Source of the DNA: an uncultured virus (IMG/VR IMGVR_UViG_3300029258_003973)
Taxonomy: Duplodnaviria; Heunggongvirae; Uroviricota; Caudoviricetes
IMG/VR virus record: IMGVR_UViG_3300029258_003973
Length of the DNA: 61,488 bases
Strand: one strand, 5' to 3'
Both the position numbers and the translations under genes were made by a program. The notes beneath the pieces are model-generated. The model was given only the letters and a program-made list of their open reading frames with translations. It searched no databases and was not told the DNA's origin. Within the stretch, counting starts at the first letter, position 1. Every line of letters starts with the position of its first letter. Below are positions 30,709-61,215 of the stretch, piece after piece.

Positions 30709-30736
30709 ATTATCCTCTTTCTAAGTATCTAACATG

Positions 30737-30833
30737 CGCCAGGTGGGGACTCGAACCCCTGTTCCATTAAGAACCGATCATTAAAGATCTCAACTCTCCT
30801 CCCGGAGCGACTGTGCCCACAGTGTACCTGGCA
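30737..30833 (-). ncRNA. aberrant tRNA-like RNA
   Basis: acceptor GCCAGGT/ACCTGGC, T arm GGGG-TTCGAGT-CCCC, four internal hairpins, no canonical anticodon arm. Confidence 0.55.
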
Positions 30834-30835
30834 TG

Positions 30836-31301
30836 CGGGCCCAAAGATGTACCTTATCATCCGGGCCCTTTACTGTGCATCCAATTTGTGTCCTGTACAG
30901 TTTCCGTTTAATCCATAGTTTAATCTTATCCAGGGCAACCTACCAGCTGGTTCACGCCGCCATCAAAGGTACTGGATGTCAAGGACTTGTCATGCCTCAT
31001 GCTCGCGAGCCGTGCTCCATCCGGAGCCTAACATTCGCAGTACCCATGGGGGCGGCGGAGAGAATCGAACTCTCGTTTCCCCGCTCTAGTATATGGACCT
31101 CGATTACAGAACAGATGCATTACTAAGCTTAGGGTAATAGTCTTAGTCTGAAAGGAGCTCGTCTACCAGTTCCGACATTCCCTCGCATTTTGTGCTGTTT
31201 GTAACTTTGAGGTTACAAATTGAGGGAAGGAGGACTTGAACTCTCCATGCTCTTATGAGCGCTCCTTCTATAAAGCTTAACCTGAAGCTTAGTCTGTACC
31301 C
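30836..31301 (-). ncRNA. large ncRNA with two circularly permuted (YrlA-like topology) tRNA domains
   Basis: T arm and acceptor 3' strand precede acceptor 5' strand and D arm twice (31152-31267 and ~30927-31085). Confidence 0.7.
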
Positions 31302-31311
31302 TATATAACAC

Positions 31312-32064
31312 CTACCCGAAGATATACTTCAGGATAGCGTCCCCTGTTTCTACTTTGGCGACCTCCTCGGAATTTGCCGCTTCCCTGGCCACCTTTACTG
31401 CCTTGTCCAATTTCTCTATCCTCTCGAGAATGGCCTTTCTGTCATCCTTACTGATAGCCCCAGAGAATCGAACGCTAGTCCATGTACCTATTGGGGCGTC
31501 TTCCGTATATACTTCAACCTGTGCTGGGTGCTTATCAGTGGCTTCAGCCTTGATATGATTCCTCGGGACCTTCTTAGTACGGATTGAGCTTTTCTCTTTG
31601 GATTTGTAAAGACCCGACGCCTTATCATGCTCCCATATTTCCATTGGATCCAGAACCGGGAGTTTGTCAACCAAAGTTCTTATATCCTTGAGCTGTTTTT
31701 CCAGGAATATAAGCGTCGTTACTGGTACGTCTTTGGCAATTGTCATGGAATTATCTTCGTCGATATCTATGGTGATATCGGCTCTGGCCATCGTATTTCC
31801 AGAGTCCTGGGTAGCTACCATGTTTATCATAGCCTCCAGGTCTACGCGAACGTCTGCGAGAACTTCTGGCACATTTTCCTGTACAAGTTTGTCCTCATCA
31901 GGAAGTTTGTTTGCCCCAGTAGGATCATCTTCCAGGGGAGAATACCTTCTTGTCATACCCTCGAACAGATCAGTTCTCTGCAGCTTATGGTATGCCTTAG
32001 TTATGGCTGCCTCCCTTTTAGACTTCTCACCACTTACAATTGCTATTACTTGATTCAGTTTCAT
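31312..32064 (-). CDS. conserved coiled-coil protein (DUF7873-like)
   Basis: MKLNQVIAI...LFEGMTRRYSP...VPVTTLIFLEKQL...ATDKHPAQV...KAVKVAREAAN. Confidence 0.75.
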   Translation of the reverse strand: MKLNQVIAIVSGEKSKREAAITKAYHKLQRTDLFEGMTRRYSPLEDDPTGANKLPDEDKLVQENVPEVLADVRVDLEAMINMVATQDSGNTMARADITIDIDEDNSMTIAKDVPVTTLIFLEKQLKDIRTLVDKLPVLDPMEIWEHDKASGLYKSKEKSSIRTKKVPRNHIKAEATDKHPAQVEVYTEDAPIGTWTSVRFSGAISKDDRKAILERIEKLDKAVKVAREAANSEEVAKVETGDAILKYIFG

Positions 32065-32468: not shown

Positions 32469-33857
32469 TTATCCCTCAGTTACATCAACTGCTAATCCCT
32501 TTCCGTATCCACTCTCCCACTGAGAATATCCACCACCCTGGGTTATAATCCATACCAGTGGTTTGTCCGGATCGGTTTTTGGCCACCCACAGGGGTATCC
32601 GTCAGTTACACATACATAGAGATCATAATCATGTTGCTTGAACACGTCGTGGGAGAAGAATTCACTAAAGTCTGTCCCACCACATCTGTTTCTTTTCACT
32701 TCTTCAAGATCAGATTCGTGCTGTAGTTCTTCTACTTCCTCTGTGGGTTCAGTATCCCAGTGCACTAGATATAGCTTGTCATTGTTCTCCCTTAGCACTA
32801 CTTTCTTGGCTAGGGCAAATGCTTGATTAACCTCATCGTCACTCATGGATCCGGATTCATCCACTACCATCATCGCGCTGAACCCACGAATTCTCTTCTT
32901 ACCGGGGATCATCTTTGTCCGGCGGTTCATCCTGCCATAACAGCGGGTGTATCCCTTGTTTATTGAACGCTCGCCAACAAGAAGCTGTTCCAATAGGGCC
33001 CAACCTTTTAAGAACTCATCATCAAGTTCATCAAGGAATCCCTGAATAGCTCTTTGCATCTCGTAAGGTGCTGATCCAGCTGCCCTATGTGTAGAACGGA
33101 CTATTTCGGCAATGTCCCGCATATACTCCCGCTTGCCTTCCTGGGTCACTTTCGGGATGACTACGACTCCATTTCCATCCCCAATACTACTCGAACCGTT
33201 GCCTTGCTGTATAACTGTTACATTACCTTGATCGTCTACTTCTATTATAGTAGGTATATTATTCCCATTAAATCCAATATTCTTTAGTATCTTCTTCTCT
33301 TCATTGGGATTGGCTCTCATATGCCTCACTATGGACTCGAATGTAGGAAAATCATCATAGTCTATTCCAGCCTTGCTATATGTCAGCATGTTATTAGAGA
33401 GCTTCTTATACCCTTCCATATCCTGCAAAGCATAGTTTACTGGAAGATCAGCCATTGGTGCATATTTAGTGAAGAACTCTTTTGTACCTATACCAAACTC
33501 TGCCATCATATCGAAACCTCTGGTAAAGTGGTAGTTAAGAACATGCATAAGTTCATGGCTTAATGCATAATCTATCTCATAGTTCTCAGCGTTAGCTATG
33601 AATTCTGCACTATATATCAACCTGATACCATTCTCAGTCATTGTCACTGCAGCCAGTCCGCCCTGGATATTTGCCGGGACTTTCTGTATAGATGAAAAGA
33701 ATATAGGGATAAATTCATCACGTACTATACCATCTATAATATACGCTTGGAATCTCTCCCGGGCCTTCTCCCTTATAGCTTTCCGATCTAACTGCTCTCC
33801 GCTGTCGCCGTGTCTTCCTTGTTTTCCACTTGGTTCTCCAGTTCCACTGACAGGCAT
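32469..33857 (-). CDS. DUF2201-type metallopeptidase-VWA protein
   Basis: HELMHVLNYH zincin motif; MIDAS VDESGSM, GGTDF, TDGY. Confidence 0.9.
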   Translation of the reverse strand: MPVSGTGEPSGKQGRHGDSGEQLDRKAIREKARERFQAYIIDGIVRDEFIPIFFSSIQKVPANIQGGLAAVTMTENGIRLIYSAEFIANAENYEIDYALSHELMHVLNYHFTRGFDMMAEFGIGTKEFFTKYAPMADLPVNYALQDMEGYKKLSNNMLTYSKAGIDYDDFPTFESIVRHMRANPNEEKKILKNIGFNGNNIPTIIEVDDQGNVTVIQQGNGSSSIGDGNGVVVIPKVTQEGKREYMRDIAEIVRSTHRAAGSAPYEMQRAIQGFLDELDDEFLKGWALLEQLLVGERSINKGYTRCYGRMNRRTKMIPGKKRIRGFSAMMVVDESGSMSDDEVNQAFALAKKVVLRENNDKLYLVHWDTEPTEEVEELQHESDLEEVKRNRCGGTDFSEFFSHDVFKQHDYDLYVCVTDGYPCGWPKTDPDKPLVWIITQGGGYSQWESGYGKGLAVDVTEG

Positions 33858-35122
33858 TTCAGTACCTCCTCAAACAGGTCTGCATTCTTCTTCTCTTTGA
33901 ACTTCTCATTGAGCTTGTCTTCCATCTTGCTTAACTGCAGCCTTGTTACTTCCTTTAACAGGCCTACGGCCGAGTCAAGGTCTGTTTTCCTCAGTAGCTT
34001 TATGTACTCAATCGTGTTTCCAGCTACTGCTTCCCACACATCTTCCATTTTGCCTTTCATACCGTTGACCATGTCTGCCATGTATGCCCCGGGATCCTGC
34101 ATTCCACGTATCATTTCCTGCTGTATACGATAGAGATGAACTGATTTCTCTTTAGAGTTTATCATCTTCTCTAGCTTCTTGAACGCTTTCTTGTCCCCCG
34201 CCAGTATCTGGATACCCGATATTTCGAATACATCCTTTATATATTTGGCGAAAAGATCGGCATCATCTATTCTCAGGCAAGCATGGGCTACAGCTTTCAG
34301 TTCAAACGGTATGTTATTTGGATCTATTGCTGGGAACATGTTATTCAGCATATCACTGAAATGAGCAAGCCTTCTTCCTTTGTTGTTATTGAATACAAAC
34401 GGGTGGTCTGAAACAAAGTCAACAAGGGAAGCATTTACACCATGTGCTTTTGCCCATGTGATCCATTCACTTGGAACAGCTTCTATCTTGTATATTGCAG
34501 TTCTGTCCTGGCTAGCTTTACCTATTTTGCTCAGCATGTAATCGTTCACTTGTGGTGGATTCATGCTAGCTATAAGCATTGCTCCATCTGATAGGAACTG
34601 ATCATCAAGCCTTCTGTCATAGAATAGCATGTATATCATTTCCTGTACTTCTTTCGATGCCTGGGCAAACTCATCGAGATGTATGATTCCTTTCCAGTTT
34701 GGGTCAAACGCCTTCTGTAAATACTGGAGCTGTACAAAGTTATATGTAGGCTCCTTCTTGTAATATTCATACAGCAAGTTCTTTATCCCCGCCATATCAT
34801 CACTGTATCCGTTCCCTTCCAGTTTCCTTACAAGGGCCGGAAATCCTCTAAGGTCTTCTGGCTGGATACCCTTGCAGGGGAACCATAGGTACTCTATCCC
34901 TAACTCCTCAGCACACTGTTCCTGAAGATGGTTCTTACCTATTCCTGACTCCCCTATGAGCCAGTTAGCCCACTTCCTTGTTGGTTCATGTACATACTGC
35001 ATCTTCAGAATGTTCTTCATCTGATTTACGGATACTGCAGTTGCATGGTACCATACGGCATCAATCCTTGATAGCCTGCTAAACTCGCCGTCTCTCTTAG
35101 CTTTGGTCTCACTTCGTGACAT
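33788..35122 (-). CDS. MoxR/dynein-related AAA+ ATPase
   Basis: GESGIGKN, DLRGFP, IHLDEF, SMNP; adjacent to VWA partner. Confidence 0.85.
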   Translation of the reverse strand: MSRSETKAKRDGEFSRLSRIDAVWYHATAVSVNQMKNILKMQYVHEPTRKWANWLIGESGIGKNHLQEQCAEELGIEYLWFPCKGIQPEDLRGFPALVRKLEGNGYSDDMAGIKNLLYEYYKKEPTYNFVQLQYLQKAFDPNWKGIIHLDEFAQASKEVQEMIYMLFYDRRLDDQFLSDGAMLIASMNPPQVNDYMLSKIGKASQDRTAIYKIEAVPSEWITWAKAHGVNASLVDFVSDHPFVFNNNKGRRLAHFSDMLNNMFPAIDPNNIPFELKAVAHACLRIDDADLFAKYIKDVFEISGIQILAGDKKAFKKLEKMINSKEKSVHLYRIQQEMIRGMQDPGAYMADMVNGMKGKMEDVWEAVAGNTIEYIKLLRKTDLDSAVGLLKEVTRLQLSKMEDKLNEKFKEKKNADLFEEVLKCLSVELENQVENKEDTATAESS

Positions 35123-47673: not shown

Positions 47674-47756
47674 TGGTGAGGGAAGGATTTGAACCTTCGT
47701 AGCCGGTCGACAACAGATTTACAGTCTGCCCCCTTTAACCACTCGGGAACCTCACC
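47674..47756 (-). tRNA. tRNA-Tyr(GTA)
   Basis: GGTGAGG/CCTCACC-A, GCAGA-CTGTAAA-TCTGT, long variable arm, GAAGG-TTCAAAT-CCTTC. Confidence 0.95.
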
Positions 47757-47783
47757 GATTTAGTATTGCAAAATGCTCCGATA

Positions 47784-47969
47784 GCAGCTGGTAGTGATGG
47801 AATACCTATGTGAGAGGAATCACTGTGCTCCAGATTGATCCATCCTATTACAGGACCCTGCCTTTATACTTCATCCCCTTGAAGCTTTATTAGACCCAGG
47901 GTTTACCGTCATTGGGTTTGACTTATTCTTGATCTCTTGATGCTTGAGCCTTGAAAGTCACCAGACTAC
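47784..47969 (-). ncRNA. candidate ncRNA with periodic TCAAG repeats
   Basis: terminal stem GTAGTCTGGT/ACCAGCTGC enclosing TCAAG x4 at 7-8-nt spacing plus further AAG units. Confidence 0.5.
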
Positions 47970-48073
47970 GGGATTCAAAGTCCCATATCTTCTAATTTGC
48001 ATTCAGAAGGATTAGTGTTTACCCACACCCATACAAGGGTCACATACTTTTCCTAGTTTTCACTAAAGAAGCA

Positions 48074-48298
48074 TTAAATGTATTCTTTTACCTCCTGCAA
48101 GGCCTCCATTAATTCATCATAGAGACCAGCTGGTATAGCTATTCCCTTAGAAGTTGGACGCAGCCCATCTTCATCAGGGGGCTTGAACCATGTCCTTATA
48201 TTTATTAGATCATGTCCTTCAAAATGATCTACGGCAACTCTAACAACATCTGTTCCGTTGCCCTTCTCTATGTCCTTATAGAACTTTGTACTGGACAT
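48074..48298 (-). CDS. PC4/YdbC-like ssDNA-binding protein
   Basis: LINIRTWF...LRPTSKGIAI. Confidence 0.85.
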   Translation of the reverse strand: MSSTKFYKDIEKGNGTDVVRVAVDHFEGHDLINIRTWFKPPDEDGLRPTSKGIAIPAGLYDELMEALQEVKEYI

Positions 48299-48337
48299 TA
48301 GGTACCTCCATATTATATAGATAAGAGTAGCAAAACG

Positions 48338-48850
48338 CTACTCCAGAAGATCTCTAGTAGCGTTTATTACCTCGAGTCTGGACTCTATGTTATCATAGAG
48401 ATCCTGCCACTTTGAGAGGCCTTCCAGTTTGTCCTCTTCCCTGTAGAGCCGCACGACAGATACAACTTGTCCTGACTCGGAAGCCATCTTCCTTACCATG
48501 AGCTTCTTGTCTGCTGCATGGGTAGTTAGGGCATTGTATGTGTCCAGCATTATTGGGGACAGCTTCCTCTTTATAGCCAAGGCATCAGCGAGAGTGTATT
48601 GTTCTCCGCGGATTTCTACTGTGACTTCCAAGTTAGTACGGTCTATCCTTCTCTTGAGCTCCAGATACTCCTTGAGAAGATCGTTGTTGCTCTGTATGAG
48701 CTGGCTCACTTTCTTTCTCTGTGTTTCCTCGTCCCCAAATACCGGACGCTCTACGTTGAGAATGGATGAGTACTCTGATATCTGTTCTATGTTCTTGTTC
48801 ATCCTCTTCTCGATAATTCTAAGTTCCTTAAGTCCTTCTACTATCTTCAT
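48338..48850 (-). CDS. DIP1984/septicolysin-like coiled-coil protein
   Basis: MKIVEGLKEL...LKRRIDRTN...TLADALAIK...IESRLEVINAT; AGGAGG SD before ATG 48850. Confidence 0.7.
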   Translation of the reverse strand: MKIVEGLKELRIIEKRMNKNIEQISEYSSILNVERPVFGDEETQRKKVSQLIQSNNDLLKEYLELKRRIDRTNLEVTVEIRGEQYTLADALAIKRKLSPIMLDTYNALTTHAADKKLMVRKMASESGQVVSVVRLYREEDKLEGLSKWQDLYDNIESRLEVINATRDLLE

Positions 48851-52370: not shown

Positions 52371-53318
52371 ATGAGGGACACAGCTTTGATCACAGGGGCA
52401 ACCGGCTTTATGGGGCCCTACATTACGAGAGAGCTGGCCCCACTGTTTGATTCCATAATACTCCTACATAGAGAAAGCTCCCGTCTCTCCGAGCTAGCTA
52501 TAGATGATAACATACAACTATGTAAGTCCGACCCTGATAGTATAGAGGACATGTTCAAGGAGCGGGGCCACTCCATAGAAGGGATAGTACATCTTGCAAC
52601 CCACTATGCCAAATCTCATGCCCATAGTGATATAGCTAATATGATAGATGCAAATATATCACTTCCTCTAGTGTTGCTAAGTCTTGCTGATAAATATGGA
52701 TTGGAGTGGTTTATCAATACTGGAACATGTTTCGAATATGCTCCATCTTTGCACCCCATTACAGAAACAAGTCCATTGAGACCAGTCAATCTCTACGCAC
52801 AAACCAAAGCCTCTTTCTATGATATGATACAACATATAGTCACATACGAGAGTAACCTGAGGATCATGACTCTAAGACCATTTTACGCATATGGCGTTGG
52901 TAACTATCCTCACAAACTGATACAGACTATGGTAATGAATGCTCTAACCGGGAAAGATATCACTATAGACAGGCCATATGATAAATCTGACTTTATAAAT
53001 GTTAAGGATATAGTTACGGCTTATAGGCTGACAGTAGAATTCCTACGTGAAAATACAGGAAATGAGCCTATAGGCGATCCTGTTCTTAACATAGGATCGG
53101 GAGAGGCATATACGCCCCTAGACATAGTTAAGGTTATAGAATCTATCTCAGATCTCAAACCTACGGTGATTTTACCACCAGAAGCAGGGTTGAGACCCCC
53201 TAGAGTAACTGTATCTGACTCATCCCGGGCCCGTAACCTATTGGGATGGAATCCAAAAGTGAGTATTACAGAGGGTATTGGTGACATACTAAGCAGCTTT
53301 ATAGATATATTACATTAG
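52371..53318 (+). CDS. NAD-dependent sugar epimerase/reductase (extended SDR)
   Basis: ITGATGFMG, NTGT..EY, YAQTK. Confidence 0.9.
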   Translation: MRDTALITGATGFMGPYITRELAPLFDSIILLHRESSRLSELAIDDNIQLCKSDPDSIEDMFKERGHSIEGIVHLATHYAKSHAHSDIANMIDANISLPLVLLSLADKYGLEWFINTGTCFEYAPSLHPITETSPLRPVNLYAQTKASFYDMIQHIVTYESNLRIMTLRPFYAYGVGNYPHKLIQTMVMNALTGKDITIDRPYDKSDFINVKDIVTAYRLTVEFLRENTGNEPIGDPVLNIGSGEAYTPLDIVKVIESISDLKPTVILPPEAGLRPPRVTVSDSSRARNLLGWNPKVSITEGIGDILSSFIDILH

Positions 53319-53329
53319 GAGGTGAATAC

Positions 53330-53866
53330 ATGGAACTCATAAAGACGCCACTAAATGGCGTCCATCTTATCAAAAACAGGCCATTCTCAGATCACAGGGG
53401 GGATTTCAGGAAGCTTCTACACGTGCCTACATTCAAGGATATGGGACTGGAAACCAAGTTCAAGGAGGCTGTGTATAGTACATCTACTAGGAATGTAGTC
53501 AGGGGTATGCATTTCCAGATACCCCCAGCAGATCATGTAAAGCTAGTATGGGTTTCCTTCGGTGTTATACTTGACGTAGCCCTATGCGTTGATAGAAAGT
53601 CAGAAGACTTTGGAAGATATTGCAGTCAGAAACTTAACCATAGTGATGGTATAAGTATGTATATAGGGAAGGGATATGCCCACGGATTCAGAGTAATCAG
53701 TGACGTGGCTGTTGTCAACTACATGACTACTACGGTTCATGCTCCGAAGAAGGATATGGCCGTAAGATGGAATAGCTTTGGGATGTCATGGAGGGTTGCC
53801 AACCCTATACTTTCTACCAAGGACCAGAATGCCATGACTCTGGAAGAGTGGAGAGATATGAAATGA
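53330..53866 (+). CDS. rmlC: dTDP-4-dehydrorhamnose 3,5-epimerase family
   Basis: DHRG.F, RGMHFQ, KLV, AHGF, LSTKD. Confidence 0.92.
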   Translation: MELIKTPLNGVHLIKNRPFSDHRGDFRKLLHVPTFKDMGLETKFKEAVYSTSTRNVVRGMHFQIPPADHVKLVWVSFGVILDVALCVDRKSEDFGRYCSQKLNHSDGISMYIGKGYAHGFRVISDVAVVNYMTTTVHAPKKDMAVRWNSFGMSWRVANPILSTKDQNAMTLEEWRDMK

Positions 53867-54855
53867 ATATAGATACAAGAATAAGCAAGGAAAGGACACC
53901 TCTGCAAGACGTTATACCTCTAAGTACTCCGTTTGTTCTATTTATCGATCCATGTGACACGTGTAACTTCCAGTGTAGATTCTGCCCCACAGGAAACAGA
54001 ACAAAGATGAGGGAAACAAAGGGCAGAAACTACGGTGCCATGCTGATGTCTACCTACGAGCAGATTATGTCAGACCTGTATGAATTTCATGATAATGTTA
54101 AGGTAGTTAGGCTGTATAAGGATGGAGAACCCCTACTGAACAAACACTTTCCGGAAATGGTAAGGATGGCAAAAGACACTGGGAAAGTAGATCAAGTAGA
54201 TACAACAACAAATGCGGCAAGACTAACTAGGGAGCTATCGGATAGTATAATAAGATCTGGTATAGATAGAATAAACATATCGATAGAGGGGATGTGTGAT
54301 GAGGATTACAGGTTCTTCTCCCGGGCTGAGGTTGACTTTACTCTTCTTGTTGATAATATAAGGTATTTGCATGACATCAGCGGGGATTGCTATATATTTG
54401 TGAAGATAAACGAAGATACAATAACAGAAGACAAGAAGAAGAAGTTCTTTGATGTCTTTGGACCTATTTCTGATGGAATAGGAACAGAACATGTCATGGA
54501 ATGTTGGCCCCAGTTTGATGCAGATGTATATGCAAACCAAGAGGTAGGAATATATGGTCAACCGCTAACTAACGTATCGGTGTGCCCCTATATATTCTAC
54601 TCATTTTCAGTGAACTCTAACGGCACAGTAAGTGCCTGCTTTCTGGACTGGAGTAGAGAGCTTATTGTGGGGAACATAGGAGAAACATCCCTTGTTGACA
54701 TATGGAACAGTAAAGAAATGAACGCCCTCAGAATATCATTCCTAAAGGGTAATCGCAACAAGCATCCGTTTTGCAGGAAATGTGCTCAGTTGACTCATGG
54801 GATGCCTGATAATATAGATGCGTATGTAGACAATATCATAAAGGCAATGGGGTAG
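53863..54855 (+). CDS. radical SAM protein with SPASM/twitch domain
   Basis: CNFQCRFC, DGEPLL, C-terminal CPY...C..D...CRKC; ATGA-coupled start 53863. Confidence 0.9.
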   Translation: MNIDTRISKERTPLQDVIPLSTPFVLFIDPCDTCNFQCRFCPTGNRTKMRETKGRNYGAMLMSTYEQIMSDLYEFHDNVKVVRLYKDGEPLLNKHFPEMVRMAKDTGKVDQVDTTTNAARLTRELSDSIIRSGIDRINISIEGMCDEDYRFFSRAEVDFTLLVDNIRYLHDISGDCYIFVKINEDTITEDKKKKFFDVFGPISDGIGTEHVMECWPQFDADVYANQEVGIYGQPLTNVSVCPYIFYSFSVNSNGTVSACFLDWSRELIVGNIGETSLVDIWNSKEMNALRISFLKGNRNKHPFCRKCAQLTHGMPDNIDAYVDNIIKAMG

Positions 54856-54862
54856 TATTATC

Positions 54863-55708
54863 ATGGCTATCTTACCATCACAAGCTGAATATATTGCAAG
54901 AATATGTAATGAGAATAACATCAATGGATCAGTAATAACGATGGGAAGAACTGATGTTTTTGTTACTCTCCCCGAGTTAACAACAATACTGAAGAACCTG
55001 GGAATAGTATATGAAGACCACGAAGGTCTTGAATTCAAGGACATAAATAGAGGAAAGAAAGCAAACGAATTAATAAAGGCTAATAAACATTTGCGTAAGT
55101 CTTGTGGGAATCAGCGAGTAATTGGAGAATATGCAATAACCGACGAGTTCTTCTTCAATAGTTTAGGCTTTGATATAATTCAATGTATAGACCTAAACCC
55201 TAATGCCGGCAGGCCCACTATTGTTTTTGACATGAATGAAAGGGACATACTTCAGGCTACAAATAACATGAAGTATGATGCCGTTATTGATACAGGTGTT
55301 ATGGAGCATGTTTTTGATATTAGATCCTTCCTGTTGAACTGTACAGATCTCGCAAAAGATAACGGGCATCTGATCCATGTTATGATATCAAACAACACTA
55401 TGGATCACGGTTTCTACCAGTTTTCTCCGACTTTGTTCAAAGACTATTACACGGCTAACAAATACAGGGTAATTGATATTACACTTCTAGAACTATCAGA
55501 GAATAAGTTCATACCTACCGATTCCCCATGGATAAAACGATGGGAGTTCTACAGAACATGGAAATATGATCACAATCTCTTTAGTAAGAATAGTTTTGGA
55601 CAATTATCTAGCTCTATTTATTATACTATGATGTGTGCACAGAAGATTCCTGGGTGCGAAAGAAACATTGCGCCACAACAAGATAGAAAAGGATTATTAC
55701 CATGGTAG
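54863..55708 (+). CDS. SAM-dependent methyltransferase-like protein
   Basis: YDAVIDTGVMEHVFD...HGFYQFSP. Confidence 0.7.
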   Translation: MAILPSQAEYIARICNENNINGSVITMGRTDVFVTLPELTTILKNLGIVYEDHEGLEFKDINRGKKANELIKANKHLRKSCGNQRVIGEYAITDEFFFNSLGFDIIQCIDLNPNAGRPTIVFDMNERDILQATNNMKYDAVIDTGVMEHVFDIRSFLLNCTDLAKDNGHLIHVMISNNTMDHGFYQFSPTLFKDYYTANKYRVIDITLLELSENKFIPTDSPWIKRWEFYRTWKYDHNLFSKNSFGQLSSSIYYTMMCAQKIPGCERNIAPQQDRKGLLPW

Positions 55709-56403
55709 ATACTATACAGTCTTACAGAGAAAACATAGTCTTTGACCTGGGATTCTACAATGGACTAGATAGTTTATGGTATCTAGAGAAAGGATATCAA
55801 GTAGTGGCAGTGGAAGCCAATCCAGAACTTGCTGAGAGAGGAGCAAGGAAACTTGAGAAATTTATATGTGCTGGTCAGATTACTATTGTAAACGCAGCTC
55901 TTTCTGAAAGAGATGATGATCTTATAGATTTCTTTATAAATGATAATATGCTAGAATGGAGCAGTTGTAACAAACTCATGGCAGAGAGCGATGGTTCTAA
56001 CGCTAGAGTAGTAAGTGTTCGTTCCATAACGTTGATGAAGCTCATTGAAACATTCGGATTACCATACTATGTGAAATCAGACATAGAGGGGAACGATGGT
56101 GTTGTTGCTAGACAATTACTGGAACTACCTAAGAAACCACAGTATGTATCGTTTGAGATAGGCAAGAAGAACTACTATGATATCTTACCATGGTTGTATG
56201 TGTCTGGGTACAGCTCTTACCAACTAATAAACCAATTGCATACTCCAAAAGGTACCTCTGGTGCATTTGGAGAATATCTTGATGATGATAATTGGATATC
56301 ATTTGATAAGGCATTAGAGAGATATGTTAAATATAAGTTATTGAAAGAAGACGACAATGTTAATCTCGCTGTAGGATGGATAGATATACATGCAAAACTG
56401 TAA
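55702..56403 (+). CDS. FkbM-family methyltransferase
   Basis: VFDLGFYNG, VAVEANP, KSDIEG. Confidence 0.88.
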   Translation: MVDTIQSYRENIVFDLGFYNGLDSLWYLEKGYQVVAVEANPELAERGARKLEKFICAGQITIVNAALSERDDDLIDFFINDNMLEWSSCNKLMAESDGSNARVVSVRSITLMKLIETFGLPYYVKSDIEGNDGVVARQLLELPKKPQYVSFEIGKKNYYDILPWLYVSGYSSYQLINQLHTPKGTSGAFGEYLDDDNWISFDKALERYVKYKLLKEDDNVNLAVGWIDIHAKL

Positions 56404-58027
56404 CATTCTTTATATAATACCACCGAGTATTGGTATGGAGTACATAACTGATAGTTCTACAACTCGCTCTATTCCATCTCTCGCAGTTCCATACGGAATA
56501 CTGTCTATAGATACATACGTTAAGTCCAAAACAGAAATTCCCATACATTCTAATATTCTCGATCTTAATGAGATTATCATTTCAGAAATGGATCAGGCTA
56601 TTAATATAATAGACAATCTGGAAACTATTCTCGAGACCATGATAGAAGACGAGGAGAAGATAAATATATTTGCTATTTCTGCTCTCTTCAATACAAACTA
56701 CAGTTATCTAGAGGTCATATCTAAGACAGTGAAAAGACATACTCAAGATGCTCTATGTCTCATAGGAGGGGGACTAGCCACAAACATACCCCGTAGGATA
56801 ACAAGAGATTTTCCAGACATAGATGGAGTATGTTACTCAGAGGGAGAAATCCCATTTCTAAACCTCATACGTTCCATTGACAGGGGTACCAATCCAATAA
56901 CACATATGACCAAGAGTGTTTCATGGTACACTCAATATTCTACTAAGGATAAACGATTAGTTCCTCAACTAATTGACGATCTTGATGAAATACCTATATT
57001 GGACTATTCTCTGATAGATCTGTCAAAATACAGTAAGCGTTCCGTGAATAAAATAGAGCGAGGCCAAAGGACAGGTAATGAAATAACAATACATACTTCA
57101 AGAGGGTGCCCATATAATTGTATATATTGTGCTAATGGGTCAGTTCATGGTAAGAAAGTACGGTATATGAGCACCGAAAGAGTAATATCTGATATATCAA
57201 CACTAAGCAAACGTCACAACGCTGATGTTGTTATGATAGAAGATGATCATTTCCTATCTGATAGTAATAGGGCCATTGAAATACTGACAGAATTATCACG
57301 TAAAGAAATATCTATAGAGTACCCTAATGGCATTGCTGTAAAGCAATTGAATAGAAAGATGGTAGATGCTTTGCATAAGTCTGGGGTAAAAGAAGTACAA
57401 CTTGCCGTGGAGTCTTGTTCCGATAGGGTCCTAAAGAATATAATCAACAAACCACATACATTGCATGATATAAAGACCGCTGTAAGTTTGCTGAGGGAAA
57501 AAGATATACGAATTCATGCGTATATTGTTATAGGTATTCCTGGCGAAACCGATAAGGACCGGAAGGAGTCATTAGATAATATAATAGAAATAGGGTTCGA
57601 TTGGGTATACTATTTCATTGCTACACCAGTAGTAGGGAGTAGGCTGTATAATATATGCATAGAACATGGATATATAGATCCCAACGATATGTTTTCTAAT
57701 CATACTGTAAACAGAGGATGCATTACGGCTCCGGGAATATCCCCTAATGATATCGAAAAGATACAATACTTTATGAACTTGGAGACCAATTTTGTTAGAA
57801 ACCATAACATGAGAACTGGTAATACTGATCTAGCTATGCGGTATTTTAAGGATATTACCGATAGATACCCAGATCATGCCATGGCTTTCTACTTCTATGC
57901 AAAATGCCTAGAATTATCACCAGGGAGTAATGGTTCTGCTAGCAAGTATATGACCATAGCTAGAGATATTATATCAAGCAGCTTAGAATGGACATCGTAT
58001 TTTGATAAATTCAACATAGAGGTGTAA
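56390..58027 (+). CDS. B12-binding radical SAM (class B methyltransferase-like)
   Basis: PYG, IGGG, SEGE, TSRGCPYNCIYC, EDD, GIPGET. Confidence 0.9.
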   Translation: MQNCNILYIIPPSIGMEYITDSSTTRSIPSLAVPYGILSIDTYVKSKTEIPIHSNILDLNEIIISEMDQAINIIDNLETILETMIEDEEKINIFAISALFNTNYSYLEVISKTVKRHTQDALCLIGGGLATNIPRRITRDFPDIDGVCYSEGEIPFLNLIRSIDRGTNPITHMTKSVSWYTQYSTKDKRLVPQLIDDLDEIPILDYSLIDLSKYSKRSVNKIERGQRTGNEITIHTSRGCPYNCIYCANGSVHGKKVRYMSTERVISDISTLSKRHNADVVMIEDDHFLSDSNRAIEILTELSRKEISIEYPNGIAVKQLNRKMVDALHKSGVKEVQLAVESCSDRVLKNIINKPHTLHDIKTAVSLLREKDIRIHAYIVIGIPGETDKDRKESLDNIIEIGFDWVYYFIATPVVGSRLYNICIEHGYIDPNDMFSNHTVNRGCITAPGISPNDIEKIQYFMNLETNFVRNHNMRTGNTDLAMRYFKDITDRYPDHAMAFYFYAKCLELSPGSNGSASKYMTIARDIISSSLEWTSYFDKFNIEV

Positions 58028-58028
58028 C

Positions 58029-59147
58029 ATGAAGACACTAAGTATTCTCGAAGCGCTCTATGATATACAAAGCAGAGAAGTGATACTTCCTGTAGAAGAT
58101 ATAACAGAACCAGTAATAATATATGGCGCTGGAGAATTAGGACAGTTAGCTTCATCTGCCTTGACAGCTGCAGGGGTAGAGATTTCTCATGTTATAGATC
58201 GGGTAACATATCCTCCTAGGAAAGTAGGAGACCACAACGTAATTTCTGCATCGGATATCACTATAGATGAAATGATGAAGAGTACTACATTGATATGTGT
58301 ATCCAAATTTCCTCCAGATGAGATATCTCTATACCTAAATTCAAGAGGGTTTAAGGATGTAAGACCATTCTATAATGTGTCGTTCCTCTTTGGCGATAAA
58401 TATCCTATCAATAACGGATGGAATGGTAATGATATAGAGAAAGACCATATAAACAAGGTATATGATGTAATAGATCTCATGGGTGATAATATATCGGCAG
58501 CACACTACGTTAGGTTCCTATACTGGCATATGTTTAGAGAAGAGGTACTTGTAGAAGGCGCATTGATAAACGTAGACAACCGATACTTCATACCCGAGAT
58601 ACTCAGGATTCTAGGAGACAGTGAAGTGTTCGTGGACATAGGTGCGCATTGTGGTGCTGCTGTAGAAAGATTCAGACTATTTACTAGGAAGAATTATGAT
58701 AGTATATATGCGTTTGAACCCGATGATAGTAACTACGAGATATTACTCATGGGGAAATCAGACGATAGAGATAGTTATATAAAGACCGTACTTAGTAGCT
58801 CTGAGAAGGTTGTCAATTTCAAACACGGTTTGGGCTATGCTTCCAAGATAGCAGGAGACGGTATAGAATGTTATACTAGAACACTAGACAGCTTTCATAT
58901 CCCAGCTAGCATTATAAAGATACATGTTGAAGGACATGAGCTAGATGTTATACAGGGAGCTCAAGATACTATACAGAAGAATCGTCCTATAGTTATGGTT
59001 ACAACATATCACAATCCTGATGGGGTATATAAGATACCCATAAAACTGGCTGAGATATGTAGTGATTATATTATGTTGTTCAGATTACACAGTTATATGG
59101 GGACAGGTAGTGTAATATATATGGTACCAAAGGAGAGACTTTCCTAA
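58029..59147 (+). CDS. FkbM-family methyltransferase with N-terminal Rossmann-like domain
   Basis: IYGAGELG; FVDIGAHCG, AFEPD, IKIHVEGHE. Confidence 0.85.
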   Translation: MKTLSILEALYDIQSREVILPVEDITEPVIIYGAGELGQLASSALTAAGVEISHVIDRVTYPPRKVGDHNVISASDITIDEMMKSTTLICVSKFPPDEISLYLNSRGFKDVRPFYNVSFLFGDKYPINNGWNGNDIEKDHINKVYDVIDLMGDNISAAHYVRFLYWHMFREEVLVEGALINVDNRYFIPEILRILGDSEVFVDIGAHCGAAVERFRLFTRKNYDSIYAFEPDDSNYEILLMGKSDDRDSYIKTVLSSSEKVVNFKHGLGYASKIAGDGIECYTRTLDSFHIPASIIKIHVEGHELDVIQGAQDTIQKNRPIVMVTTYHNPDGVYKIPIKLAEICSDYIMLFRLHSYMGTGSVIYMVPKERLS

Positions 59148-59150
59148 CCA

Positions 59151-60479
59151 ATGGATATTATACACATAACACCACATGTTGGAGGAGGGGTAGGCAGTGT
59201 ACTGAACACATGGGTACACAATGATAATTACAACACACATGGAATTATATGCTTGGAGCCCCCCAATAGGGTTCCCGCCTACCTTGGGAAATGCATCCTT
59301 GATACTCAGAATACTAGACAACACGTGAGAAACGCCGATGTTGTTGTATTTCACTTGTGGAACAATCCACCCATGTATGACCTATTGACCGGTGTATCTG
59401 ACATTCATCTTCCTGATAAGTTCAGGGCCGTAGCATGGGGGCATTCCTCTGGAACATATCCTCCATACATGGTTTATTCTCGTCAAATATTATCTTACTT
59501 CGATAAGATAGTATTTACCTCCCCTATAAGTTACACTACTATATCTAAGCTTCAGCGGTCTCGGTACAAGAACAAATTGTGTTCCATATGGTCAACAAGT
59601 GGTCTGTGTATAGGGTCAGAACTATATAGACCAGGACTCAATATAACATACATAGGCTCTATGGATCTAAAGAAAATGGCACCATGGTTCTTCGATGCGT
59701 GCTATGATATTATTGCGCTGATAGACAACGTAAAGTTCCATATGGTGGGGGACGGGCCAGACCTTCACACTATGCGTAAAGATGTTATATCCAATGGGAG
59801 AAAGGACAACTTCATGTTCCATGGATATACCAAAGATATAAAGCAACTTCTAGCTATAACTAACGTGTTTGGCTATCCCCTATCTAGGTTTCACTTTGGC
59901 ACATGTGAACAGGTTATAGGGGAAGCCATGTCATGTGGAATACCAGTAGTATCAACAGACAACAAGGCTGAGTCATATATACTGAAGAATGGCCATTACG
60001 GTTTACTATCTAAAGACAAAGACACATACGTCAAGAATGTTATACAGCTCATACATGATGAAAGATTGTATGCTATTCTTGCTGAGAGATCTTTGGAAAG
60101 AGCTAAGGACTTATATTCAGTCGATAGAATGATCACACTATGGAACAGTCTACTTAAACAGGTAGCAGTACTGCCAAAGATAAAGAAACAATGGAGTGAC
60201 CGCAAAACGATAGCTAGAGGCTTCGATGTATTTTTGGAATCAATAGGAAAGTACAGCAGACTATTCTGCGATATTGATGACGACGCAAACTATACCATTA
60301 GTAAAGTGCTTAGGGTAACAGATACAACACCAAGTTGCTGGTCCGGGCCTAATAAAGGTACTCCTGAGCATTACATAAAGCATTATGTTAATAACTATAA
60401 TCTAAGAGATCAAAAGTTAGAGAGATGTGTAAACCAAATTAAGGAGAGGGAAGAGAAAAGCAATGAGAAATCCTATTGA
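59151..60479 (+). CDS. GT4 glycosyltransferase
   Basis: HVGGGVG, VGDG, EAMSCGIPVV. Confidence 0.88.
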   Translation: MDIIHITPHVGGGVGSVLNTWVHNDNYNTHGIICLEPPNRVPAYLGKCILDTQNTRQHVRNADVVVFHLWNNPPMYDLLTGVSDIHLPDKFRAVAWGHSSGTYPPYMVYSRQILSYFDKIVFTSPISYTTISKLQRSRYKNKLCSIWSTSGLCIGSELYRPGLNITYIGSMDLKKMAPWFFDACYDIIALIDNVKFHMVGDGPDLHTMRKDVISNGRKDNFMFHGYTKDIKQLLAITNVFGYPLSRFHFGTCEQVIGEAMSCGIPVVSTDNKAESYILKNGHYGLLSKDKDTYVKNVIQLIHDERLYAILAERSLERAKDLYSVDRMITLWNSLLKQVAVLPKIKKQWSDRKTIARGFDVFLESIGKYSRLFCDIDDDANYTISKVLRVTDTTPSCWSGPNKGTPEHYIKHYVNNYNLRDQKLERCVNQIKEREEKSNEKSY

Positions 60480-61215
60480 TACTTACCTTCAAGAAGCTGA
60501 ACAGAGAATACAGACATATCCCAAAGACAAACAACTAGTGGATAGTGCCAATGAGTTCAGAATACATACATGCAGAACTATGTATTCGTATAATTTCACG
60601 TGGGCAGGCATACCTATAATCCAAAACCCATGGGATATCCAAGCATTTCAAGAACTAGTATGGAAAGTCAAGCCAGAGGTTATAGTGGAAACGGGAATAG
60701 CCTTTGGCGGTTCTTTAATGTTAAGTTCTTCAATGCTGGGAATTCTAGAAGATTGTGGTATTATAACAGAAGGAATAGTAGTTGGAGTAGATATAGACAT
60801 AAGAGAACACAACAGAGTATCTATAAGAAATCATCCACTGTCCAAACGTATACATATGATAGAAGGATCTAGTGTAGAGCAGTATACAGTGTCTGAAGTG
60901 TCCAACATTGCGGATGGTAGAAAAACCCTAGTTTGCTTGGATAGTAGTCATACACATGAACATGTACTAGAAGAACTAAGTTTATATACTCCGCTGGTGA
61001 GCAAAGACAGTTACTGTATCGTGTATGACACTGGTATTTCGGAAGTTCCTGAGGATAAGTTAAGTCCAAGAGAATGGAATAGATACAGGAACCCAAAGAG
61101 CGCGGTGAATGAATTCCTGACAAATACCTCTGAGTTTGAAATAGACCGTTCTTTCGATAAGAAGTATCTTATTCCTGCTGCTGTTGGAGGCTATCTGAGG
61201 AGGATCCATGAGTAG
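60463..61215 (+). CDS. CmcI/cephalosporin-hydroxylase family (sugar O-methyltransferase)
   Basis: YSYNFTWAGIPIIQ.P.D, VETGIAFGGS, LDSSHTHEHV. Confidence 0.9.
   Translation: MRNPIDTYLQEAEQRIQTYPKDKQLVDSANEFRIHTCRTMYSYNFTWAGIPIIQNPWDIQAFQELVWKVKPEVIVETGIAFGGSLMLSSSMLGILEDCGIITEGIVVGVDIDIREHNRVSIRNHPLSKRIHMIEGSSVEQYTVSEVSNIADGRKTLVCLDSSHTHEHVLEELSLYTPLVSKDSYCIVYDTGISEVPEDKLSPREWNRYRNPKSAVNEFLTNTSEFEIDRSFDKKYLIPAAVGGYLRRIHE

Follow-up and report, generated by a model that had tools for sequence, protein, structure and literature searches.

The window analysed here, a stretch of 61,488 nucleotides, is the second half of a linear virus record of 123,488 bases with an estimated completeness of 55%. 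Its minus strand carries the gene of a 170-aa DIP1984-like protein (48338-48850; weak Pfam, NCBIfam, and PHROG matches), followed by a PC4-like gene (48074-48298; Pfam PC4, E = 1e-10) and by a structured noncoding RNA of 300 nt (47774-48073). On the same strand, tRNA-Tyr(GTA) (47674-47756) lies 18 nt behind the RNA, and a phage tmRNA (47326-47671; Rfam RF00023, 150.6 bits), which Rfam detects and ARAGORN misses, follows after a gap of 2 nt. As described before, the PC4-like gene stands between the DIP1984-like gene and a tract free of open reading frames, none of 50 aa or more being found within 47757-48073. It was considered as a component of the module and rejected, since tblastn places PC4 in the window's own locus only (n = 73 loci); from this comparison it is a local insertion between the DIP1984-like gene and the RNA. 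A scan for sigma-70 promoters is uninformative (5 sites vs 8.9 expected). Elsewhere in the window, the list of open reading frames shows sugar-nucleotide, radical-SAM, and glycosyltransferase-like genes at 52371-61215 on the plus strand, a block that runs against the orientation of the remaining window.

The preliminary description called the product of 48338-48850 DIP1984-like, a label that holds for the fold and stops short of family membership. The AF2 model of the protein (pLDDT 93) has the DIP1984-like fold, a long helical hairpin plus a beta-hairpin; its top Foldseek match is DIP1984 (PDB: 3KDQ; E = 1.7e-3, prob 1.00), which is also the best match in VIA-align (Z = 11.7, rmsd 7.1, 149 residues aligned; next 9.0), and hhalign of its family against canonical DIP1984 gives 95%. 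Because both curated cut-offs are missed, that of NF038048 with 28.8 bits vs 70 and that of PF20935 with 25.5 bits vs 27, the protein is best described as a predicted DIP1984-fold protein of a distant subfamily and not as a member of DIP1984/DUF6847 sensu stricto. It is also matched by phrog_1491, labelled tail fiber, with E = 2.5e-12, and a profile search collects 1205 relatives at the 50% cluster level. ESCRT-III hairpins match the model weakly (Snf7, Z = 8.6; CdvB, E = 0.2). A sequence search of the PDB gives no significant match, and tblastn with P0080 against plasmids and phages gives none. Lysine or arginine occupies positions 8, 11, 15, 16, 35, 66, 94, 95, 116, 134, 141, and 158 in more than 70% of rows in an alignment of 222 sequences.

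Fold and heptad repeats of the RNA

The minus-strand segment 47774-48073 is a real structured RNA element. It is larger than the tract first delimited, for which GTAGTCTGGT/ACCAGCTG had been taken as the closing pair; of 51 homologues, just 12-41% show pairing at those columns, and the 5′ limit is placed about 110 nt further upstream because a covarying closing stem joins 48062-48073 to 47774-47785. The alignment used (A2) was made with MAFFT, was not fitted to structure, and holds 51 sequences with a mean column identity of 37% (left out are L003, L058, L078, L090, L093, L106, L079, L115, and L116). Two-sided changes occur across these copies in 34 of the 36 proposed pairs, with frequent G-U states, and 88.4% of 1817 cells are paired, compared with 71.2% in shuffled and 34-46% in slid controls, in which relatedness partly remains. 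A blind mutual-information scan of A2 ranks the proposed helices first. The comparison of cognate with swapped partners, in whose controls relatedness also partly remains, gives z values of 4.5 to 15.4 for seven helices, and two unrelated segment pairs put through the same test give −0.8 and −0.5.

Read from its 5′ end on the minus strand, the element opens with the first strand of the closing stem P1/P1b and a conserved G-N-A-A junction (48057-48073), pairing with 47774-47785; this stem (columns 3-15 with 507-520) is 92-99% paired and has two-sided changes in 10 of 11 pairs. The 5′ partner of a long-range kiss (48040-48046) pairs with a loop of the 3′ domain (47807-47813), is 87% paired, and covaries in 5/5 pairs (z = 11.8). 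It adjoins a 5′ H-type pseudoknot (48015-48040), in which 48037-48040 pairs with 48021-48024 and 48025-48028 with 48015-48018 (z = 4.5 and 11.7; first stem 73% paired in the raw alignment). The variable region that follows (47970-48009), 29-100 nt long among homologues, forms two hairpins, one with a YUGAA loop that we take to be T-loop-like; a YUGAA-type motif is present in 32 of 51 copies vs 5.4 expected from shuffles. A central H-type pseudoknot (47895-47922) separates the two repeat runs and covaries in both stems (stem 1: 99% paired, 4/4 pairs; stem 2: 89% paired, 3/3 pairs), with z values of 11.2 and 11.5 for cognate against non-cognate partners. The 3′ domain (47786-47837), with an AA-C junction and an invariant G-C-T, consists of a 4-bp stem (47830-47833 with 47788-47791; 100% paired, 3/4 pairs covarying) and an inner stem (47819-47824 with 47793-47798; z = 12.3).

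The nested folding energy of the window's RNA is unremarkable (z = −0.41) and lends no support to RNA structure, for which the pseudoknots and single-stranded runs may be the reason. A tRNA-Cys-like reading of 47965-48035 was rejected, as neither ARAGORN nor Rfam gives a match there and homologues show the pseudoknot and variable hairpins instead. Pieces resembling a tRNA T-arm or D-arm are seen inside the variable region in RNAs of type II (see below) and of distant loci, namely L122, L147, L148, L116, and L184.

Run 1 (47923-47954) holds four T-N-A-A-G-N-N units at spacings of 7/7/8 nt and run 2 (47862-47889) holds four more. The four CTTGA sites reported for the plus strand (47928, 47936, 47943, and 47950) are all in place, with a fifth at 47878, and both runs read as they had been described. 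A three-unit YHAAG array with 7-8 nt spacing occurs at this site only in the 123-kb genome (2 overlapping matches), compared with a mean of 0.3 and a maximum of 2 in 30 shuffled genomes. Among homologues the unit is T-N-A-(A)-G-N-N, spaced by 7 nt (178 cases) or 8 nt (44 cases); run 1 has four units in 34 of 51 copies, and run 2 has four in 24, three in 17, and five in 6. The best autocorrelation lag is 7 in 37/51 copies vs 8/51 in each of two control sets. Both the letters and the spacing of the repeats are under selection: across 18 close pairs, differences amount to 0-4% at the constant letters and 4-6% in the stems, and the variable letters, which are compositionally biased, change at about the synonymous rate (0.17/0.28/0.43 vs synonymous 0.12/0.44/0.41). 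Frozen constant letters beside drifting variable ones would fit sites recognised by a protein rather than a guide. By eye, the wording of the repeat tracks the protein subfamily, with YAAG here, TTAG in Bacillus phage C30-3, and AAAG in T5. In L001, L002, L003, L041, L045-L047, and L086, hairpins are inserted between repeat units with the unit count on either side intact, which suggests a flexible strand on which each unit is read separately.

Gene and RNA across phages and bacteria

Three scans yielded 85 loci, from which 7 cut before the stop codon and 12 duplicates were removed to leave 66; the RNA was sought with an nhmmer model built from 35 seeds and, separately, with a pairing descriptor. 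By nhmmer, 59 of these 66 loci have the RNA downstream of the gene (24/31 non-seed; the window's own locus is counted, and L115 and L116 enter as partial matches), and the nhmmer model has one match in the virus's own genome. An RNA-first scan with the pattern of the 3′ domain gave 22 viral matches, of which 12 are true RNA copies, every one with the gene within 2 kb upstream (11 of these 12 are contigs already among the loci), and the remaining 10 are chance matches without gene or RNA. Among sequencing runs no holder of the RNA is listed, which carries no weight in either direction. The suggestion that gene and repeat RNA form a general pair is thus borne out, and the search behind homologues finds repeats that are present and an RNA that covaries. 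In about 47 of 56 full copies the distance from stop codon to RNA is at most 40 nt; in at least six loci, the window's included, genes or tRNAs stand in between, and of the other protein-coding neighbours none is shared by more than 10 of 73 loci. A tRNA on the same strand is present near the RNA end in 23/55 loci (up to 600 nt before it or 300 nt after it), any tRNA is near the RNA in 31/55, and 24/55 show none, all being raw counts without a background rate.

Eight loci (L115, L116, L121-L123, and L146-L148) form a second type (type II): by eye, their RNA looks related, with some eight units in direct succession and ends that differ; their best mean lag is 7 and the strict descriptor finds 0/8. 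A search by way of Bacillus phage C30-3 leads to 504 phage records, mostly T5-like, and nine distant proteins, including ORF080 of T5 and gp530 of phage G, match the window's family (hhalign 99%; HMM E-values from 1e-6 to 3e-18). With the strict pairing descriptor, 30 of 51 type I copies and three of nine distant tracts (T5, G, and ME3) contain the core, and no shuffled sequence does. Its relaxed form finds the core in 7/9 distant cultured phages vs 0.13 in shuffles, missing L182 and L186, and the relaxed-core match in L185 looks spurious. The cognate kiss in each of the seven relaxed-core phages gives 6.6 vs 4.8 (2/20000 permutations). In T5 the gene is ORF080 (L179:2396-3034, equal to AY587007 43426-44064) and the RNA tract follows directly (L179:3035-3410); this tract is conserved in 438 records, with 80% or more of its length covered and an identity of 90% or higher in nearly all of them. 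The phrog_1491 family, annotated as 'tail fiber protein' in many T5-like, Bacillus, and Klebsiella phages, corresponds to the distant DIP1984-like protein with the same RNA core, and the 'tail fiber' annotation looks wrong.

In samples of Chloroflexota and Verrucomicrobiota, the canonical DIP1984 genes precede a different conserved tract with a weak 7-nt signal. These tracts (L149-L173) are about 200 nt long and structured, with a GAGGGYGG motif in 13/19 and an apparent 5′ pseudoknot, and they show no nhmmer match to the present RNA and 0/19 matches to the descriptor; Rfam gives no match for the four canonical tracts scanned. The canonical set has 26 loci, with L154, L156, and L169 (near-duplicates), L158, L167, L168, and L174 left out; L158 (genome G148) enters only the tally 20/301.

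Comparison with DUF7873 and known systems

The preliminary description saw the same architecture twice in the window, the other instance being the DUF7873 gene (31312-32064, minus strand; PF25283, E = 4e-88) and the RNA behind it (31040-31305, minus strand, limits drawn by eye), which, again by eye, has split tRNA-like arms and belongs to a separate RNA family. The parallel stands at the level of layout, since in both modules a conserved RNA with AAG-type or purine-periodic motifs comes after the gene of a helical protein in a tRNA-rich setting, and fails for the RNAs. The nhmmer model of the DIP RNA finds 0/33 and the core descriptor 0/27 among DUF7873 loci, and the DUF7873 RNA has split tRNA arms and a period near 6 rather than 7 nt, a soft figure, as a best lag of 6 in 13/26 is accompanied by the same lag in 15/51 far-downstream controls. 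BLAST of the 48338-48850 protein against that of 31312-32064 gives no similarity, and hhalign of the two profiles returns a probability of 0.3-2.5%. The DUF7873 HMM reaches at least 4 bits in 68 of 226 DIP-like proteins vs 1-10 in reversed and shuffled sets (best 19.1 bits), with the signal over the N-terminal hairpin and the invariant Asn before the beta-hairpin aligned in both families. A remote kinship of the two proteins is thus possible from the profile signal, and it is still compatible with an atlas structure search of DUF7873 that lists no DUF6847-named cluster. The two families show independent distributions, with no co-occurrence in other phages (0/23 and 0/22 records, many of them fragments; 0/4 and 0/5 among near-complete records) in a search whose positive controls worked. 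The two are better regarded as independent modules of similar logic.

Around DUF7873, the minus strand at 30730-31305 shows several split tRNA-like arms, T-arm first and D-arm later, together with AAGC-type repeats; the arms are missed by ARAGORN and Rfam, and the layout recurs in most of L004-L036. Just upstream of DUF7873, at 32469-35122 on the minus strand, lies a pair formed by a MoxR-type AAA ATPase (AAA_5) and a DUF2201 vWA/metallopeptidase.

Rfam 15 has no match for the window's RNA or for the RNA in 14 homologous and 16 distant loci, the only matches being tRNA and tmRNA. In the open-access literature, including the available part of 10.64898/2026.09.15.751765, no description of the RNA and no RNA partner of the DIP1984 family is found. 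A large RNA of this kind with a dedicated protein partner is apparently undescribed. PAK_P3 sRNAs are about 100 nt long in the available text of PMC4933390, and no link to the present RNA is made.

Compared with DIP1984/DUF6847 itself, represented by the crystal structure 3KDQ, which has several chains, the present protein shares the whole-chain fold and, as in canonical loci, its gene precedes a conserved tract; it is phage-borne and has 170 aa rather than about 150, and the canonical tract differs in sequence. TRAP and Hfq are oligomeric rings that read spaced NAG and ARN triplets, respectively, and a similar one-site-per-subunit reading of spaced AAG-type motifs is probable here; the folds are unrelated, and the target in our case is one dedicated, co-encoded, ornate RNA.

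As given in the available part of PMC12286853, ROOL and GOLLD are large multi-pseudoknot phage RNAs near tRNA islands, of unknown function, which form RNA-only cages of ~650-800+ nt, ROOL being without an identified protein partner. The present RNA, matched by neither Rfam model, is about 300 nt long, is tied to one protein gene, and has periodic single-stranded sites; unlike ROOL, this additional family of large RNAs with several pseudoknots comes with a named protein partner. VIPR, in the available text of 10.64898/2026.04.26.720920, uses guides of 9-16 tandem 5-nt GGY/NN units with hypervariable NN, and the phage protein Vipr is proposed to polymerise on this periodic vrRNA, which has a pseudoknot. 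Judged from that text, the two systems resemble each other in a periodic RNA of constant and variable letters, in the pseudoknot, and in a proposed polymerising phage protein; they differ in that the period here is 7 and not 5, there is no GGY, the 4+4 units are split by a pseudoknot, the variable letters are neutral, and the protein is a helical hairpin (3KDQ match) and not RAMP-like.

A proposed ribonucleoprotein

We consider it probable that gene and RNA form a two-part ribonucleoprotein, in which an oligomer of the protein sits on the heptads. This reading is favored because gene and RNA are linked in both directions, the structure covaries, and the repeat letters are frozen, and because the twelve basic positions are conserved and the RNA core is found in distant cultured phages. 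Against it weigh the net charge of the protein, which is about zero, the PC4 gene that separates gene and RNA in the window, and the 7/66 loci without RNA within the DNA examined. The RNA would share a transcript with the tRNA cluster and the protein gene and would fold into a compact knotted core of closing stem, 5′ pseudoknot, long-range kiss, and 3′ stem; this core would display one single-stranded run of four 7-nt units on each flank of the central pseudoknot. The helical-hairpin protein, the proposed and still putative RNA-binding subunit, would oligomerise and read T.A.G of each unit, and about one binding site per unit would give a particle of fixed stoichiometry. Late in infection such a stable particle might protect or support translation, as a decoy or shield against host defences that cut RNA or tRNA, or as an aid to RNA repair. 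This is the most likely role and also the weakest step, named tentatively and with the chances somewhat against it, since it is drawn from the tRNA-cluster neighbourhood alone.

Other readings account for part of the same evidence. In type III toxin-antitoxin systems (ToxIN), tandem pseudoknot repeats lie upstream of a ToxN-type RNase, and by analogy the RNA could restrain a toxic or membrane-active helical polymer until cut; the strict one-to-one linkage of gene and RNA with no third gene, the pseudoknots plus repeats, and the weak ESCRT-III fold matches would agree with this. We think it unlikely, given that the RNA lies downstream and has one ornate fold rather than tandem pseudoknot copies, that ESCRT-III scores of this size are usual for any helical hairpin, and that seven loci have the gene without RNA nearby; membership of type III proper was rejected on position and fold and on the lack of any ToxN-type Pfam or fold match. 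A cis-acting 3′ element, serving transcript stability, feedback, or tRNA processing and bound by the protein to regulate its own operon, would explain the usual start of the RNA at most 40 nt past the stop codon and its frequent position directly before a tRNA. In at least six loci, however, that of the window among them, whole genes or tRNAs separate the gene from the RNA, and a closed 5′-3′ stem with three pseudoknot-type contacts is more typical of a free RNA, which makes such an element improbable.

That the RNA assembles without protein, like ROOL or GOLLD, with the gene as a passenger of a tRNA-region transcript, is quite improbable: as a large multi-pseudoknot phage RNA near tRNAs it resembles them (PMC12286853, as far as available), but gene and RNA stay together down to 20-30% protein identity while other neighbours change, single-stranded periodic letters are under selection, and Rfam gives no match. 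A VIPR-like programmable guide, its target spelled by the variable repeat letters, is suggested by the likeness to vrRNA of constant and variable letters alternating in a pseudoknotted frame (available text of 10.64898/2026.04.26.720920). We regard it as very improbable, as the variable letters are biased in composition and not hypervariable, the tract is well kept in the 438 T5-like records, the virus's own 55% complete genome has no gapped target below 2 mismatches, the protein is not RAMP-like, and the RNA has only 8 units and no GGY. Hardly credible, too, is that the repeats serve as binding sites on DNA, with stems that are incidental; a PC4-like nucleic-acid-binding gene does adjoin in this genome, yet PC4 is absent from the other 72 loci, the orientation is fixed, and the covariation tolerates G-U and includes pseudoknots.

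If gene and RNA do form a ribonucleoprotein, the DIP1984 fold, whose structure is solved but functionless, gains a testable ligand, and many records of T5-like and other phages would, as the data suggest, hold half of an RNA-protein module under the label 'tail fiber'. With the pair present in phage T5 and the tract in 438 phage records, the system is experimentally accessible in E. coli, and it bears on the role of whatever phage tRNA clusters contain besides tRNAs. A broader view, which we offer as doubtful, is that an ancient ribonucleoprotein class has DIP1984-fold proteins (T5 ORF080, phrog_1491, and those of bacteria) as its protein half, each subfamily polymerising on its own periodic RNA code, with DUF7873 as a remote 6-nt branch and the two members in this virus shielding translation.

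Three loci without the RNA have features of their own. Behind the gene, L064:3008-3900, L073:479-1040, and L092:2914-3560 show an array of tRNA-like pieces together with bulged hairpins that recur. Ro60 is a TROVE protein whose gene adjoins that of YrlA, a Y RNA; membership of the present pair in this class was rejected, there being no recurrent TROVE neighbour among the scanned clusters and no RF02553 match. After the tRNA-like array of L092 stands a gene of 488 aa (L092:3562-5028) with a weak C-terminal vWA match and no match to Pfam TROVE, which may be Ro60-like. A structured-looking upstream tract is common to L064 and L092.
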